Source: Escherichia coli (GTDB lineage Bacteria > Pseudomonadota > Gammaproteobacteria > Enterobacterales > Enterobacteriaceae). Taken from it: a stretch of DNA of 64,000 bases. A program made the position numbers. Of this stretch, positions 1 through 9,000 are shown piece after piece. The stretch lies in NCBI RefSeq assembly GCF_030013595.1, contig NZ_CP122768.1; one strand, 5' to 3'. Within the stretch, counting starts at the first letter, position 1, and each line of letters opens with the position of its first letter.

Positions 1-3000
1 TGAGAAAGCCACAAGGTGTCAGACTCAAAACGACACTCAACGCGGGTTTGACCATCAGCACTGGTGAAAAGAACAAACTCACCTTGAGGAGCTTGTGGGA
101 TGTTATCGGCCATTGAATCAACCTTCATATGTTACTGATAATGGGCTATTATTTATCCATAGCGGTTACAGAGTTAGCGAGCCTTTTTTCTTTGCCAAAC
201 GGGGTCGTATAGAAGCGTTGTTCAATGCCATAAAGCAGTAACTTCAACTCATCGTCATTAGATATTTCAAACTTCTGATTTTCTTTATCGAATTTCAGCT
301 TCTGTTCACCGCAGTAACCGTCGATATAATCAAGCATGTTAGCTTTATCGTCAGCAGACATCGCATCAAGTGTTGCCATAGCAAGGCCAATACGTTTTCT
401 ATTAGGTTTTGAGACGCTATCTACGTTGTAGTCATTACCCAACTCTATAAACTGTGCATCTAAAAACTGCTCAACTTCTTCTTTTGTTGCTTCCTTGTAC
501 AACTCATCGATACCTTTAAAAATGCTCGAGATCGTTGCCAGATTTTTGAATATCAAGGTATCGGCCACTTTGAAGTACACTGCATCAGGTAAGGCGTTTA
601 TTACTAAACGTGTTTGGCTCTTCTCAATTTCTGCGGCTTCACCAAAAACAAGCGTTTTGCGTTTTACGAATAGGCTTGGAGTGATTTTTTGAAAGTAAAA
701 ATCATTACCTTGAATTGCAAATAAGTAGGCGATCTTGGCGAAGTTATCTTTGGTTAAGTCATCGTAGTCTTTTGAATCATAGTCTTTTTTTAGCAGTTCA
801 ATACAAAACTCTTTTTGACTAAAGTCTTCAATTTTAAACCATGAGTCTTCGTCAAGGTTATGGTCTGGATTGTATGGAATACAGGCATTTAAGTCGATTG
901 TGACGGTATCAAAAAGAGATTGATCAGAAACCAATTTGAAAATGCGTTTTTTTGCTCTAGTTTTTATATGTGCCAGTACATGGTCCATCATTATCCTCGC
1001 TCGATAAATGTGTAATTATTGATTCGATAAGCCAATGATATTTCGATGTCATCTGGCTTCTTGTAGCGCTCTCGGCTAATAAGGAAAATGGCCGTTCCGT
1101 TTTTGGTTGTAATGTTATAAAACTCATAACCAAACAGTAAAAACAATGGGTTAAAGTAGAGTGCTTGCGATAAGAGAGTAAAAACAAACAAAACGCCATA
1201 AACAAACCACAATGTCTCCCAGTTACCAATGCTCAACGCCACGAAAAAGTAACCCAAATAACTTGGTAGGAAGCTGTTATTGGCATGCTCAATACTCGCT
1301 ACTTCACCCGCCTTAAAATCGTCTTTACCCAAATACTTACTCAGCCAAATACTCAATCCAGTCGATAAAACAGGGATAAGAAAATAGAGTAAATATGATA
1401 CTGCGTTCGGAAGTGCTGCTATCCAATCGAAGCAAGCGAAACCACCAAAGAAATATCCGAGTGAGTACCCTTTTTGTACCGCAAAGATAATCACTAGTAG
1501 TGATGTTGCATTGAACGTAAGTAAAACCCGAAACGCAGTATTCATTATTTCACCGCCGCCTGTTCTGCACCTTGCTTCATCATGTCAAAAATCAACTCAA
1601 CATAACTTGCCATAACTTGTGGGTCTTTGAGTAGCGTTCGGGCTATATCACCTTCTTTCAGCAGAGCCTGCACAACGGCTTGCTTCACCGCTTGCGGCAA
1701 GTCGCCTTTGAGGGCAATCGACTTGTCGTGCTTTTCTATCTGCTCAACCACAATTGGATTTTGGGTGACACGCGTAATAGTACCGTTGGCAAAGTTTCGG
1801 CGACCGGGTTCGTCGCCGACATCGCCAAACAGTTCGTTTAGGCGGCGAATGATATCGGCAAGAAATGCCTGTTCACGATCCGCAGGGTCGTTATAGTTGG
1901 GGCGGATAGGTTCAAGTACCTGATTAAACGCTTCTGGAAGCGGCTCTTTGTCGTATTTGATTTTGAATTTTTCTAGTACCAGTGCACTGAGATCGATGTT
2001 TTCTGGTGTTACCCCTTTCAATCGACGTGATAGCAAATGAGCAAACGCGGCAAAGTTTTCCAGTTCAGGATCACCAAACTCAATCAATTGCGCCATATAG
2101 CTATAGTGCTTCACAAATCGAGCTAAATCTGACTTAAAACGCATTAGTGCTTCGCGCTGCTTGGTGAAATCACTGCGCTGAGATTCTGCGTAGTTCGCCG
2201 CTTTTTCATCACCCGCAAGGTGCGCTTTGTTGTATTGCTGATCCCAATGGTTTGCAGCATCAACCAGCTCTTTGAGCTTAACGTTGAACACATCGGTAGG
2301 GCGTTGTGTGGCAGCTAGCAGTTTCTTGTGCGCGTGTGACTTTTTGTCAGGTGATTGGCCGAGAATCGATTTACCACGCGCTTGCTTAAACAACTCTAAA
2401 TCTTGATGGTTGTATATGTTCTGTTCATCCAAAATATCTTTGATGTCATAGATGACGTTCACATCTTGCACTTCATTAAGCTGCGCGCCTTTGTCGTACT
2501 TTTTGAACGCATTGAGAATGGTTTGTGGATCGTTAACAAAATCAATCACGAAGGTTGTGTCTTTGCCTGGATAGGTGCGGTTTAGGCGAGACAGCGTTTG
2601 CACCGCTTCTACATCGGATATTTTCTTATCCAAATACATGGCAACCAGTTTTGGTTGATTAAAGCCCGTTTGGAACTTGTTGGCGACTAACATGACGCGA
2701 TATTCGGTATTCTCAAACTCATGGCGCAGGTCAGCCCCGTGCGTGTCTGGGTTTAAGTTGTACTCGGTGTACTCTTTATCGAAATCAATTTCTAGCGGGT
2801 CTTGGCTGTCTTCATCACCCAAATCTTTGCCGGGGACTTTGCCCGAGAAGGCAACCAAGGCTTGGATACCTTCAATACCATGCTTTTTAATGTATTTATC
2901 AAAAGCAAGCTTGTATTTCACCGCCTGTGGCCTGCCCGATGTGACCACCATGGCTTTGGCTTCACCTTCCAGTAGGTGAGCGATATTGGCCTTGAAGTGC

Positions 3001-6000: not shown

Positions 6001-9000
6001 GTTTAGCTGGTACTGAGTTCCATTTCGAGTCAGATACGAAAGCATCTACTATGTTGCCAGCATTCATTACGCCACCTCATTCAGCAGAGCCTGAATGCGC
6101 GCTTCACATGCTTTTAGCTCACGATCAATCACACTCAACTCGCGTGGTGGCACGTATTGGTAGAAATAGCGGTTAAAGTTAATTTCATAACCGACAATGC
6201 CCACTTCGCCGTCTTTTTCATCACGCACTGAGTGATCAATAAAGGCATCCGGTACATGTGGCAGCACCTCTTGTGCGAAGTAATCTTCAACGTCGCGGTC
6301 AAAAGGAATGCTTTCGGTGTCTTTGAGTTTAGGGTCGGCGATCACTTGGCCTTTTTCATCCAGTGCAGGCTCAAATTGCGGATCAATTTTTACAAAGTGC
6401 GCAGTTAAGGCCGTAGCCAGTGCTTTTGAGCACTTACCAAAGTCACCCTTATTGTTATTCTTCTTAACCGCCAAACGTGCCCATTCATAAGGCTGAAGGC
6501 CAAGGTTATCGGTGAGGTATTGTACCCATGCCGCTTGTTGCTCTGGTTTGAGTTTTTTAAACGTATCTTGCTGCACAAATGCAGCAATGCCCGCAGCGGT
6601 AATATCTAGTTTGGCACGCAGTGGACGCTGAATGGTGACTTTACGGTAGGCAAAATCAGTAGTCTGGAAGATCTTACAGTTGTCACTGGCTTCAAAGCCA
6701 TCGTACGCACGGACAATATCGTCAATCTGTTCATCACTCAGGTACTTGCGCTTATCGCCTTGCGATTTACGCATGGGAGTCCAAATATCTGCCAAGTTAA
6801 TCAGTTGCACCTGATTCTTGCGTCTTGGCTCTTTATGGTTAGTCAAAATCCAGATGTAGGTGCCAATGCCGGTGTTGAAGAACATATCGGTTGGCAGGGC
6901 AACAATCGCTTCGACTAAGTCTTGTTCTAGCAGCCAACGGCGGATTTCTGATGGGCCTGAGCCTGCATCGCCATTAAACAGTGGCGAGCCAGAAAGGACT
7001 ATACCCACTCGGCCACCACCATTTTCCGGCGTTTCCATTTTTGATACCAAGTGCAGTAAAAACAGCATTGAACCATCAGAAATACTCGGCAGGCCTGGCC
7101 CAAAGCGTCCGGCGTATTTGAGCTGTTTGTGCTCACGTTCTACTTCTTTCTTGGCTTTTTCCCACTTAATGCCAAATGGCGGGTTGGCAAGGCCGTAGTG
7201 AAACTTGTCGGCACGTAACTGATCGTCTGATAAGGTGTTGCCTTGCTTGATGTTATTGGCATCAAAACCGCGGATCATCATATTGGTCAGCGCCATGGCA
7301 TGGGTCGCGGGGTCGAGCTCTTGACCAAAAGGCACGACTTTAGCGCTGCTGCCCATTTCTTCAATTTGGCTAATGGCATCGGAAAGGAAACCGCCCGTGC
7401 CACAGGTTGGGTCATAGATGGTGCGGATCACACCCTTTTCACTAAAGATATCTTCATCCGCCGCCAGCACCAGTTTGGTGGCAAGACGCACGGCATCACG
7501 CGGGGTCATAAATTCCCCGGCCTTTTCATTAACCGAACTGGCGAACTTTAGAATCAGCTCTTCATAAGCATCTGATAATACGCGGTCAGACACTACATCA
7601 GGATGCAAGTCGAGGTTGGCAAAATGGTTTACCATGCGATACAGCAACTTGGCTTTTTCCAGATCTTCTATGGTTTGACCAAATTTAAACTCATCAAAGA
7701 TGGTACGAACGTTTTTGCTGAACTGGCTGATGTAGTGTTCTAGGTTGTCGCCGGTGTCTGACGCGCCTAAGGTTTCTAGGCTATATTCACTGGTGTTGTA
7801 AAAGGCGAATCCCGCAATTTCTGGCAACACTAAACCAAGGTCTATGCCGGATTGTTTTTCGGCCAGATAGAACTTACGAACTTCCTCACGGGTGGGTTCT
7901 AACACGCATTCAATACGACGCAGTAGCAAAAATGGCAGGATAATCCGCGCAAAATCGGTGTGTTTGAAATCACCCCATAAATCATCTGCCATACGCCAAA
8001 TAGCACTGGAGAGTTTGGCGCTTTGTTCTTTGTCTTGTAAGTTCATTGATACTACCTAAATGAAGTTAAATCGTTAAAAAATCAGTGTATTGTTTGGTTA
8101 TTATTTTGCGTTCTAGCTAAAGATGGCTTGCCAACGGCAAAATGCAGAACGATGTCTGTCGGTCCATTGGGTGCAAATAACATAGGTTTTTTCATCTCGC
8201 TGGGCCACTTTAGTGGTGGAGTAGCGGTTTCGCTCTTTGGCATCTTTGGCTGCACTGCGAATGTCTTCTGGCCGTGATGATTTAGCCAGTTTGAGCACGG
8301 GGAATGACAACCCAAAAATGTTGCGACAATAGGTTAGCTGCGTGAGGTTTTCTATTTCACTCAGTGGTAGAGCATGTTCAACCAAGTCTTGGATAGCTTC
8401 GGTTATCTCTGCATTGCTGATATTGTGTTGCGTTTGTGCAACTTCCCGTGTCTCTACTTCATTTTCAAGAGCAACAGAAAACGGAAAACCTTTGGCTTGA
8501 ACGGATTTAGCTAAAAAGACGTTAATAGCCTGCTCAATAGGTAAGCCCAACTCAGCAAAGATACTCGTGGCTTTTTCAAGCAGTTGAGGGTCTATATTGG
8601 TTGCCTTCATATGACTCACAAAACCTACAAATTGTAATTTTTGTATCCTATAGGCTTTGCATTTTCACGGCTAGCAATAAAGTCAAAAAATGAGAAATAA
8701 TTGATCTTAAAAAACTTAAAACAGGCTAACAAATCAGCAGTTACACTTGTCATGCCCTGCTAGTGAGAGGATCTTATCACTTTCGATATTGATGCAATCA
8801 GGTGCCGCGATAGAGGAAGCTTGGTCAGGTAATGGTGCCAACTTACTGATTTAGTGTATGATGGTGATTTTAAGGTGCTTGCGTGGCTTCTGTTTCTATC
8901 AGCTGTCCCTCCTGTTCAGCTACTGACGGGGTGGTGCGTAACGGCAAAAGCACCGCCGGACATCAGCGCTATCTCTGCTCTCACTGCCGTAAAACATGGC

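Follow-up and report, generated by a model that had tools for sequence, protein, structure and literature searches.

Restriction-modification (RM) systems of type I, Kiwa, and the embedding of defense genes in RM operons are all established. In the prr locus, prrC lies between hsdS and hsdR of the type Ic EcoprrI hsd operon, and PrrC is a single soluble tRNA (anticodon) nuclease, which the RM enzyme masks physically. Embedded genes are described for RM, BREX and DISARM loci, PrrC being almost always embedded (10.1101/2024.01.29.577857). DarTG2 is a second defense system inside the type I RM operon of the RptR-RMS-DarTG-M48 island of enteropathogenic Escherichia coli (EPEC) (PMC12255303), and TgvAB is embedded in the same way in the type I RM cluster of Vibrio cholerae VPI-2 (PMC11411939). 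Kiwa, as characterized, consists of KwaA tetramers and KwaB dimers assembled into a membrane supercomplex that senses membrane changes at phage attachment or conjugation; its KwaB binds entering DNA, stalls replication and late transcription, and is inhibited by the DNA mimic Gam. The neighborhood analysis in that work covered mobile elements only, and a type I RM context is not described in it (PMC11785009). Here we report on a 64,000-nucleotide stretch (hereafter the window) of E. coli contig NZ_CP122768.1 (assembly GCF_030013595.1), in the first 9,000 nucleotides of which two accessory genes that match kwaA and kwaB directly follow hsdM, hsdS and hsdR on the minus strand.

The reading that we favor, with a probability of roughly 0.7, is that these two genes form a promoter-less Kiwa cassette that is expressed from RM operons as a second, independent layer of defense, carried here by a mobile composite operon at selC. 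In the literature searched, no paper describes Kiwa as riding recurrently on type I RM operons, and the text of the Aeromonas type I RM papers and of the preprint on embedded genes (10.1101/2024.01.29.577857) contains no mention of Kiwa. The result would be a divergent Kiwa branch that lives mainly on type I RM operons, has been captured repeatedly and brings its own stop/start junction, offering a concrete and testable case of defense systems becoming co-regulated layers. The five genes and the junction at which the two systems meet are as follows.

6067..8046, minus strand: hsdM, type I RM methyltransferase subunit, 659 aa (PADLOC MTase_I PDLC03029, NCBIfam hsdM, RefSeq)
4781..6067, minus strand: hsdS, specificity subunit, 428 aa (PADLOC Specificity_I, E 4e-97, full length)
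1545..4781, minus strand: hsdR, restriction/translocase subunit, 1078 aa (PADLOC REase_I, E 8.6e-30; RefSeq agrees)
1543..1563, minus strand: hsdR/kwaA junction, hsdR ending in AEQAAVK and a stop codon, then the kwaA ATG
991..1545, minus strand: kwaA-like membrane gene, 184 aa (PADLOC KwaA PDLC00216; AlphaFold2 (AF2) fold match to KwaA)
149..991, minus strand: kwaB-like soluble gene, 280 aa (PADLOC KwaB PDLC00222; AF2 fold match to KwaB)

Both accessory proteins match PADLOC profiles for Kiwa: the KwaA-like protein matches nearly the whole of PDLC00216 (E 9.3e-16), and residues 33-276 of the KwaB-like protein match PDLC00222 (E 7.1e-14). Some RefSeq records already label the membrane protein “KwaA family protein”. 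Single-sequence and profile searches of the sequences in the PDB returned nothing relevant for either protein, and only fold comparison succeeded, in which AF2 models built from family alignments were compared against the PDB with Foldseek. The KwaA-like model (mean confidence, pLDDT, 86.5) is predicted to consist of four long helices with hydrophobic segments (residues 2-25, 47-71, 93-105 and 109-125) and a small C-terminal beta domain. Its sole significant PDB matches were structures of KwaA (9mrx_A, template-modeling (TM) score 0.63, E 5.6e-5; 9mrr; 9mrg), at 17-20% identity. Likewise, the sole significant matches of the KwaB-like model (pLDDT 82) were structures of KwaB (9mrx_D, 9mtn and 9nyu; E about 4e-5, probability 1.0, 11-12% identity); the low TM score of 0.39 is probably due to domain orientation. 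The layout of the genes also agrees with Kiwa, with two adjacent co-directional genes, the membrane gene preceding its soluble partner, and in 79 of 80 related loci kwaB is directly preceded by kwaA, the single exception (L069) being cut 43 nt upstream of kwaB. From the PADLOC profiles and the Kiwa-only fold matches, the accessory pair is, on sequence and modeled structure, a remote branch of Kiwa.

Compared with the Kiwa systems of E. coli O55:H7 and the ECOR strains, the pair resembles them in being a two-gene unit with the membrane gene first, in the four long helices and small soluble domain of the KwaA-like model, and in the two domains of the KwaB-like model. It differs in that KwaB of the window clade has about 275-280 aa as opposed to about 300-315 aa in characterized Kiwa, and in that most copies of the clade are fused to type I RM operons and apparently promoter-less. 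A profile search of 1.84 billion representatives yielded 251 KwaB clusters at E<=1e-30, nearly all of them about 270-285 aa long; its best 150 matches belonged to the window clade only and did not reach canonical KwaB. At 50% identity, the KwaB/KwaA clade comprises at least 250 clusters. The branch is largely missed by Pfam and NCBIfam and is mis-named in public records, where the KwaB-like protein appears as “ATP F0F1 synthase synthase”; nothing in its sequence or fold backs this name, which looks like a propagated mis-annotation. The KwaB-like protein has homologues with 82-95% identity in Plesiomonas, Aeromonas, Shewanella, Vibrio, Alteromonas, Oceanospirillum and Proteus, pointing to recent and wide horizontal spread of the gene.

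The pair could alternatively have no defensive role here and serve the RM system as an accessory, for example as a membrane anchor or a restriction-alleviation regulator. We consider this highly improbable. The KwaB-like protein does go unrecognized by Pfam (the PADLOC KwaB profiles are described as DUF4868, and a Pfam scan of the protein gave no DUF4868 match; precomputed Pfam assignments are empty for 120 of 120 homologues), its product name in public records is meaningless, and a defense role for the clade is predicted by homology only. However, both proteins match Kiwa profiles and, among PDB folds, Kiwa only, many copies of the pair occur without any RM system, and RM systems of the same families work without the pair on hundreds of plasmids.

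The RM half of the operon is a complete predicted type I system. The genes for HsdM, HsdS and HsdR are all present, full length and free of internal stop codons, with HsdM matching PADLOC MTase_I PDLC03029 over its full length at E 1.9e-243. HsdR matches NCBIfam TIGR00348 (E 1.1e-48) under the curated cut-off, and as the NCBIfam models for both hsdM and hsdR match below their cut-offs, the system represents a divergent type I RM family. Relative to the copies in two Vibrio loci (L006 and L007), hsdS is conserved at its flanks and differs in the middle, the pattern that target-recognition domains would be expected to give. The C-terminal ~80 residues of HsdR (995-1073) match the end of the PADLOC candidate PDC-S15 (E 9e-6).

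A sequence-only reading of the window had described five consecutive genes joined by four identical 1-nt overlaps, and this description was confirmed by both the open reading frame (ORF) listing and the printed junctions. The minus strand carries five consecutive ORFs (hsdM, hsdS, hsdR, the 184-aa membrane gene and the 280-aa soluble gene), and all four boundaries read TAATG, the last A of each stop codon being the A of the next ATG, so that every junction shares a nucleotide. Thus the hsdS start has one base in common with the hsdM stop, and the hsdR start one base with the hsdS stop. On the minus strand, the junctions read ...GCGTAATGAAT, ...GTGTAATGGCT, ...AAATAATGAAT and ...GGATAATGATG. 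The distance from stop to start is -1 at all four, or +2 for kwaB if translation starts at 988. The kwaA/kwaB boundary reads TAATGATG, with a second ATG at 988, two bases past the kwaA stop. Across relatives, this junction keeps the pattern TA[AG]-NN-ATG-GAY (stop, two variable bases, start), and in the alignment most KwaB homologues start with MDH, which corresponds to the second ATG in the window. Because relatives keep both this pattern and the MDH N-terminus, the true kwaB start is probably the ATG at 988, giving a protein of 279 aa, and the overlapping ATG is probably a by-product of the two spacer bases being TG. Of the four overlaps, all present as TAATG, the one between kwaA and kwaB is therefore probably accidental.

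The pentamer itself also varies between close relatives. In the Vibrio copies, which are about 89% identical, the hsdM/hsdS overlap is 4 nt (ATGA), and in L007 the hsdR/kwaA junction is TGATG; these nearest relatives contradict the idea that the identical TAATG is meaningful in itself. The conserved feature is the tight spacing, not the pentamer. In E. coli, -4 and -1 nt are the commonest overlap classes, and 24% of gene pairs in the same direction fall within -8 to +6 nt (PMC10666635). With such overlaps being the commonest, four consecutive tight junctions mark an operon, and the identity of the pentamer is uninformative.

Tight translational coupling, which the sequence-only reading had drawn from the overlaps, is plausible for this chain. 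Coupling by termination and reinitiation has been shown for distances of about -8 to +10 nt (PMC10666635), a range in which all four window junctions lie, and EcoKI provides a precedent in its 1-nt hsdM/hsdS stop/start overlap, for which translational coupling has been proposed or shown (PMC3510504). The junction is of the same kind and likewise inside an RM operon of type I. The hsdR gene of EcoKI is served by a separate promoter (PMC3510504), whereas the window chains hsdR and two non-RM genes in the same manner. The further claim of a fixed stoichiometry across all five genes was not supported. Type I enzymes are R2M2S1 (PMC11411939), as opposed to KwaA tetramers and KwaB dimers in Kiwa (PMC11785009), and of the tightly spaced gene pairs in E. 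coli, only about 30% code for subunits belonging to one complex (PMC10666635). Given the unequal subunit ratios of the two complexes, fixed or equal stoichiometry does not follow from the overlaps, and neither equal stoichiometry nor a physical complex of RM and Kiwa is supported.

In order to count the linkage from the Kiwa side, 80 loci were taken as the best matches, one genome per species, in a scan with the KwaB alignment (96% to 42% identity). ORFs were called in these loci and searched with Hsd and Kwa profiles built from the same loci (first-round matches). The loci span Gamma-, Beta-, Alpha- and Deltaproteobacteria, Bacteroidota and Firmicutes. Type I RM genes adjoin the pair in 48 of the 80 species-level loci, and seven more have less than 1 kb of upstream sequence, which places RM adjacency at about two thirds of the species where it was checkable; at least 25 loci with adequate flanks are RM-free. 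The cassette lies downstream of the hsd genes on the same strand in 44 of the 48 linked loci, upstream in three and divergent in one. The following gene orders were found.

R-M-S-kwaAB: 17 loci and 6 partial
M-S-R-kwaAB (the order of the window): 15 loci
M-S-kwaAB-R: 5 loci (L051, L054, L062, L063, L068)
kwaAB-R-M-S: 3 loci
hsdR 761 nt upstream of kwaAB: 1 locus (L057)
divergent order: 1 locus
R-S-kwaAB-M: 1 locus (L086, Neisseria gonorrhoeae), found apart from the 80

In the window, the pair is appended after hsdR and not placed between hsd genes; it is embedded in L051, L054, L062, L063, L068 and L086. The gonococcal locus (L086, 2880-10511), a N. gonorrhoeae chromosome filed as a plasmid in PLSDB, carries hsdR-hsdS-kwaA-kwaB-hsdM on one strand, with kwaA overlapping the end of hsdS by 8 nt, an order unseen among the other loci. 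This kwaA-like/kwaB-like pair is not discussed in the NgoAV paper that was checked for it. Clustering of the RM partners at 40% identity gave 11 groups of HsdR and 9 of HsdM. In a neighbor-joining tree of KwaB, a rough distance tree that serves to show interspersion only, the gene orders are interspersed, and the window clade (M-S-R-ab) is nested in the R-M-S-ab clade.

Where an hsd gene precedes kwaA on the same strand (45 loci), the spacing between the hsd stop and the kwaA start was measured, and in 35 of these loci it falls between -8 and +11 nt.

-8 or -7 nt: 4 loci
-4 nt: 14 loci
-1 nt: 8 loci
+1 or +2 nt: 6 loci
+6 to +11 nt: 2 loci
+36 to +46 nt: 3 loci
about +135 nt: 5-6 loci, an enterobacterial group including E. 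coli L002; L040-L043
peptidase gene between the hsd gene and kwaA: 2 loci
+761 nt: 1 locus

The two loci with an intervening gene (L028 8714-9394 and L059 8705-9385, Vibrio/Photobacterium) carry a 226-aa zinc-peptidase with a HELAH motif (M48/YgjP-like) between hsdR and kwaA. As an M48 gene also ends the EPEC DarTG2 island, the peptidase may be a further gene that regularly rides on type I RM operons. Split or truncated copies of kwaA or kwaB were observed in several loci (L044 9417-9997, L064 9717-9908, L049 9570-10004, and kwaB of L067 and L079); with frameshifted or short kwa ORFs standing beside intact RM genes, the cassette is decaying in some genomes. In RM-free loci, a large ATPase gene often lies just upstream of kwaA (L066 7499-9454, L075 6395-9352, L077 7321-9303). 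These ATPases are of GHKL, SMC-like and OLD/AAA types, with a 4-nt overlap with kwaA in L066, and the cassette may ride on other defense genes too.

The breadth of these partners bears on a second explanation, in which the Kiwa-like pair cooperates with the type I enzyme or is under its control. In one version, the pair would be a back-up in the style of PrrC, silenced by the RM complex and released when a DNA-mimic anti-restriction protein of a phage inactivates that complex; in another, KwaB would hold incoming DNA at the membrane for HsdR. Repeated capture by many RM families, with true embedding in the hsdS-hsdR or the hsdS-hsdM gap, is consistent with such coupling. Nearly all occurrences of PrrC are embedded in type I RM (10.1101/2024.01.29.577857), characterized KwaB is targeted by the DNA mimic Gam (PMC11785009), and protection by TgvAB is 10- to 100-fold better with the whole RM cluster (PMC11411939). 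Nevertheless, with 11 HsdR and 9 HsdM clusters as partners and either HsdS or HsdR as the upstream neighbor, the data are difficult to square with a specific protein interface. The 25 or more adequately flanked loci that are RM-free, some beside unrelated ATPase genes, and the RM families that overwhelmingly lack the pair argue in the same direction, and we regard mechanistic coupling as unlikely. The strongest form of the idea, that the clade is a dedicated rider of RM systems (a Kiwa variant without its own promoter that works mechanistically with type I enzymes), is given the same low odds. If true, the pair could, for example, trap incoming DNA at the membrane and so allow the slow type I nuclease, which depends on translocation, to act, or alternatively could be set off by the disabling of the RM complex by DNA-mimic anti-restriction proteins, and the five genes would be one two-stage immune machine and not two neighbors. 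Such a mechanistic partnership would be the most interesting outcome and a new example of synergy between systems.

The arrangement in the window may be compared with the known embedded systems. Like the prr locus, the window has a non-RM defense gene in or on a type I RM operon, presumably co-expressed with it, and in the M-S-ab-R order of L051, L054, L063 and L068 the pair occupies the place that prrC has in that operon, with hsdS before it and hsdR after it. It differs from prr in its cargo, by analogy a membrane and DNA-binding pair, in the many RM-free copies of that cargo and in its very diverse RM partners. The DarTG2 island and the window both begin with a small regulator gene (RptR there, a RelB/DinJ-like gene here), the window regulator being of the ribbon-helix-helix type and not RptR. 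Complementary coverage of phages that escape restriction has been proposed for DarTG2 and TgvAB (PMC12255303, PMC11411939), as it is here. Their cargo proteins are different, and they lie between hsd genes, whereas the window cargo is appended after hsdR.

Evidence that the junction belongs to the cassette comes from the last codons of the gene upstream of kwaA. In R-M-S-kwaAB loci, HsdS ends in ...LRDWLLPMLMNGQVTVK followed by a stop codon that overlaps the kwaA ATG, and HsdS proteins of the group labeled order B end in LMNGQVTVK before the stop. In Vibrio L006, the gene upstream of kwaA is hsdR, yet it ends in AEQVTVK and a stop, and its final nucleotides, CAGGTGACGGTGAAATAATG, equal the hsdS end of L015, CAGGTGACGGTGAAATGATG. 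The window hsdR carries a derivative ending in AEQAAVK. The HsdR of the Kiwa-less plasmid pKpQIL aligns with it through LLREG and then continues in an unrelated tail. In addition, three loci scored as standalone, in which intact RM genes are absent, retain a decayed hsdS C-terminus directly upstream of kwaA: L012 (~9390-9443, ...LRDWLLPMLMNGQVTVK), L017 (~2800-2865, ending in KVTVK and a stop) and L058 (~6770-6854, ...MMQEPLTGKTRL). Because of these remnants, at least these three solitary copies probably descend from RM-linked ones. The comparison suggests that a leader, consisting in the window of the last hsdR codons and the kwaA ATG, moves with kwaAB and derives from the 3′ end of hsdS. The simplest reading of these sequences is that the cassette arose at, or long occupied, the hsdS end and moved to the hsdR end together with the last hsdS codons. 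The leader holds a purine-rich GGTGA just upstream of the kwaA ATG, the predicted position of the kwaA ribosome-binding site.

This leader also bears on a third explanation, pure hitch-hiking, in which the 3′ ends of RM operons and the gaps between hsdS and hsdR are generic recombination hot spots, the pair is interchangeable cargo, and the tight junctions reflect genome compaction only, without a selected effect on expression. Other cargoes do occupy the same sites (DarTG2, TgvAB, PrrC, the M48 peptidase of L028 and L059, and RhuM), recombination has been suggested to favor the hsdS-hsdR site as a hot spot (PMC12255303), and the association is one-way only. Against this, the overlapping or abutting junction is kept down to about 45-60% KwaB identity and across gene orders, the leader with its stop/start overlap moves together with the cassette, and 44 of the 48 linked cassettes lie downstream on the same strand, as expected if the cassette needs hsd transcription. 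Hitch-hiking alone is, in our view, improbable.

Counted from the RM side, the linkage looks very different. The HsdR family of the window (32-57% identity) is present on 769 plasmids, whereas a KwaB relative is present on only 19, and no genus is shared between those 19 and the genera listed for the 769. The pKpQIL copy of the RM system is without kwaAB. When metagenomes were scanned for the conserved 3′ end of partner-type hsdS (DWLLPMLMNGQV...), 72 evaluable genes were obtained, one of which was followed by kwaA-kwaB. The link is one-way: this Kiwa clade prefers RM operons, and RM operons rarely carry the pair and do not need it. The pKpQIL copy and the plasmid and hsdS counts contradict the suggestion that this hsdMSR family is always accompanied by the pair. 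The sequence-only reading had proposed a check for such constant company, naming homologous loci that routinely lack the two genes, with independent promoters mapped in front of them, among the findings that would refute it, and on the RM side loci without the pair are the rule. Its claim that the accessory pair is functionally integrated, not merely adjacent, survives in part: the RM linkage in 48 of 80 loci and the tight junctions show that the pair is no chance neighbor, but RM systems mostly do without it.

In the two-layer reading that we favor, the short leader of the cassette would supply the last codons and the stop codon of whichever gene sits upstream, so that ribosomes ending hsdR would terminate on the kwaA start. 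kwaA and kwaB would most likely be transcribed from an operon promoter upstream of the RelB-like gene or of hsdM, and their translation would most likely be coupled to that of hsdR. HsdMSR and the Kiwa-like pair most likely act independently, in layers. The RM layer would cut unmodified incoming DNA. By analogy with characterized Kiwa, the membrane-anchored pair would sense phage attachment or DNA entry, bind the incoming DNA, and block replication and late transcription of phages that escape restriction.

Several points weigh against this reading. The pair is very distant from tested Kiwa, at 11-20% structure-based identity, and mechanism can therefore be transferred by analogy only. A Pfam scan gave no match for either accessory protein (DUF4868 included), and the KwaA-like protein scored 25.4 bits against NCBIfam KwaA NF041622, short of the equivalog cut-off of 100. 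The spacers of about 135 nt and the standalone copies imply that the cassette can also be expressed alone. The linkage of 48 in 80 was counted for this clade only and does not imply that it is specific to the clade as against canonical Kiwa or other systems. A consensus scan for promoters and terminators over positions 1-9000 found fewer sites than in shuffled controls and none that was promoter-like near the kwaA start, in keeping with a promoter-less cassette, but it is uninformative on internal promoters inside hsdR. Co-transcription, translational coupling, anti-phage activity and the complementarity of the two systems are inferred from what was observed directly, namely gene content, junctions, homology and fold matches, and recurrent RM linkage.

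The operon is embedded in a larger mobile module, with the following features at its two ends.

8618..8644, no strand: imperfect inverted repeat into which the start of the RelB-like gene extends (arms 8618-8630 and 8632-8644)
8113..8619, minus strand: RelB/DinJ-like ribbon-helix-helix protein, 168 aa (NCBIfam TIGR02384 RelB_DinJ, residues 7-78, E 1.7e-10)
1..113, minus strand: 5′ end of a rhuM-family gene, continuing beyond the window (the full gene is in RefSeq for L001)

The RelB/DinJ-like protein, annotated identically by RefSeq, matches TIGR02384 just under the curated cut-off. It comprises an N-terminal RelB/DinJ-like domain and an extension of about 90 aa, is without an adjacent toxin partner, and is 88-89% identical to its counterparts in the same position in Vibrio L006 and L007. 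The inverted repeat at its start has 13-nt arms that are 85% complementary, with an AT-rich region upstream, and is a possible operator. By its position, which is analogous to that of RptR, the RelB-like protein may be the repressor of the operon, a putative transcriptional regulator. At the other end, rhuM starts 35 nt past the kwaB stop as the last gene of the conserved module, and its RefSeq product in L001 is “virulence RhuM family protein”.

Nucleotide identity to Vibrio L006 and L007 is about 89% over a block of about 9.6 kb, opening some 48 nt upstream of the RelB-like gene and closing exactly at the rhuM stop codon. Judging from this sharp block of homology, the mobile unit is one of seven genes: the RelB/DinJ-like regulator, hsdMSR, kwaAB and rhuM. 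The 9-kb region is carried by 76 of 5,426 complete E. coli genomes and is 99.8-100% identical in the 20 best-matching, and its presence in 76 complete genomes makes for an easy experimental entry point. In a plasmid megablast, the sole match was the insertion sequence IS1 at about 8.8 kb. A tyrosine integrase (36042-37232) adjoins tRNA-Sec (37530-37624), which indicates that everything in the left part of the window belongs to an island integrated at selC.

Within this island, IS1 (about 8.8-9.6 kb) and a high-GC resistance block adjoin the RM-Kiwa operon (window 8800-29100). The block looks like a Tn21-type mercury/class 1 integron element and contains the following genes.

9687-10256: merR
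11342-13036: merA
17072-19367: IS21 istA/istB pair
20171-21097: sul1
26175-29081: Tn3-family transposase

Strain MEW (L001) carries the same island without the resistance block and has tia and a phosphoethanolamine transferase gene between the operon and the integrase. Finally, rhuM follows kwaB at about 35 nt in E. coli, in Vibrio L006 (10879-11901) and L007 (10879-11910), and in L009 (10874-11869), an Aliiglaciecola locus in which kwaAB-rhuM is present without RM genes. In Dysgonomonas L070 (10864-11838), rhuM again follows kwaB, at 44% identity, and kwaAB-rhuM may itself be a recurring unit.

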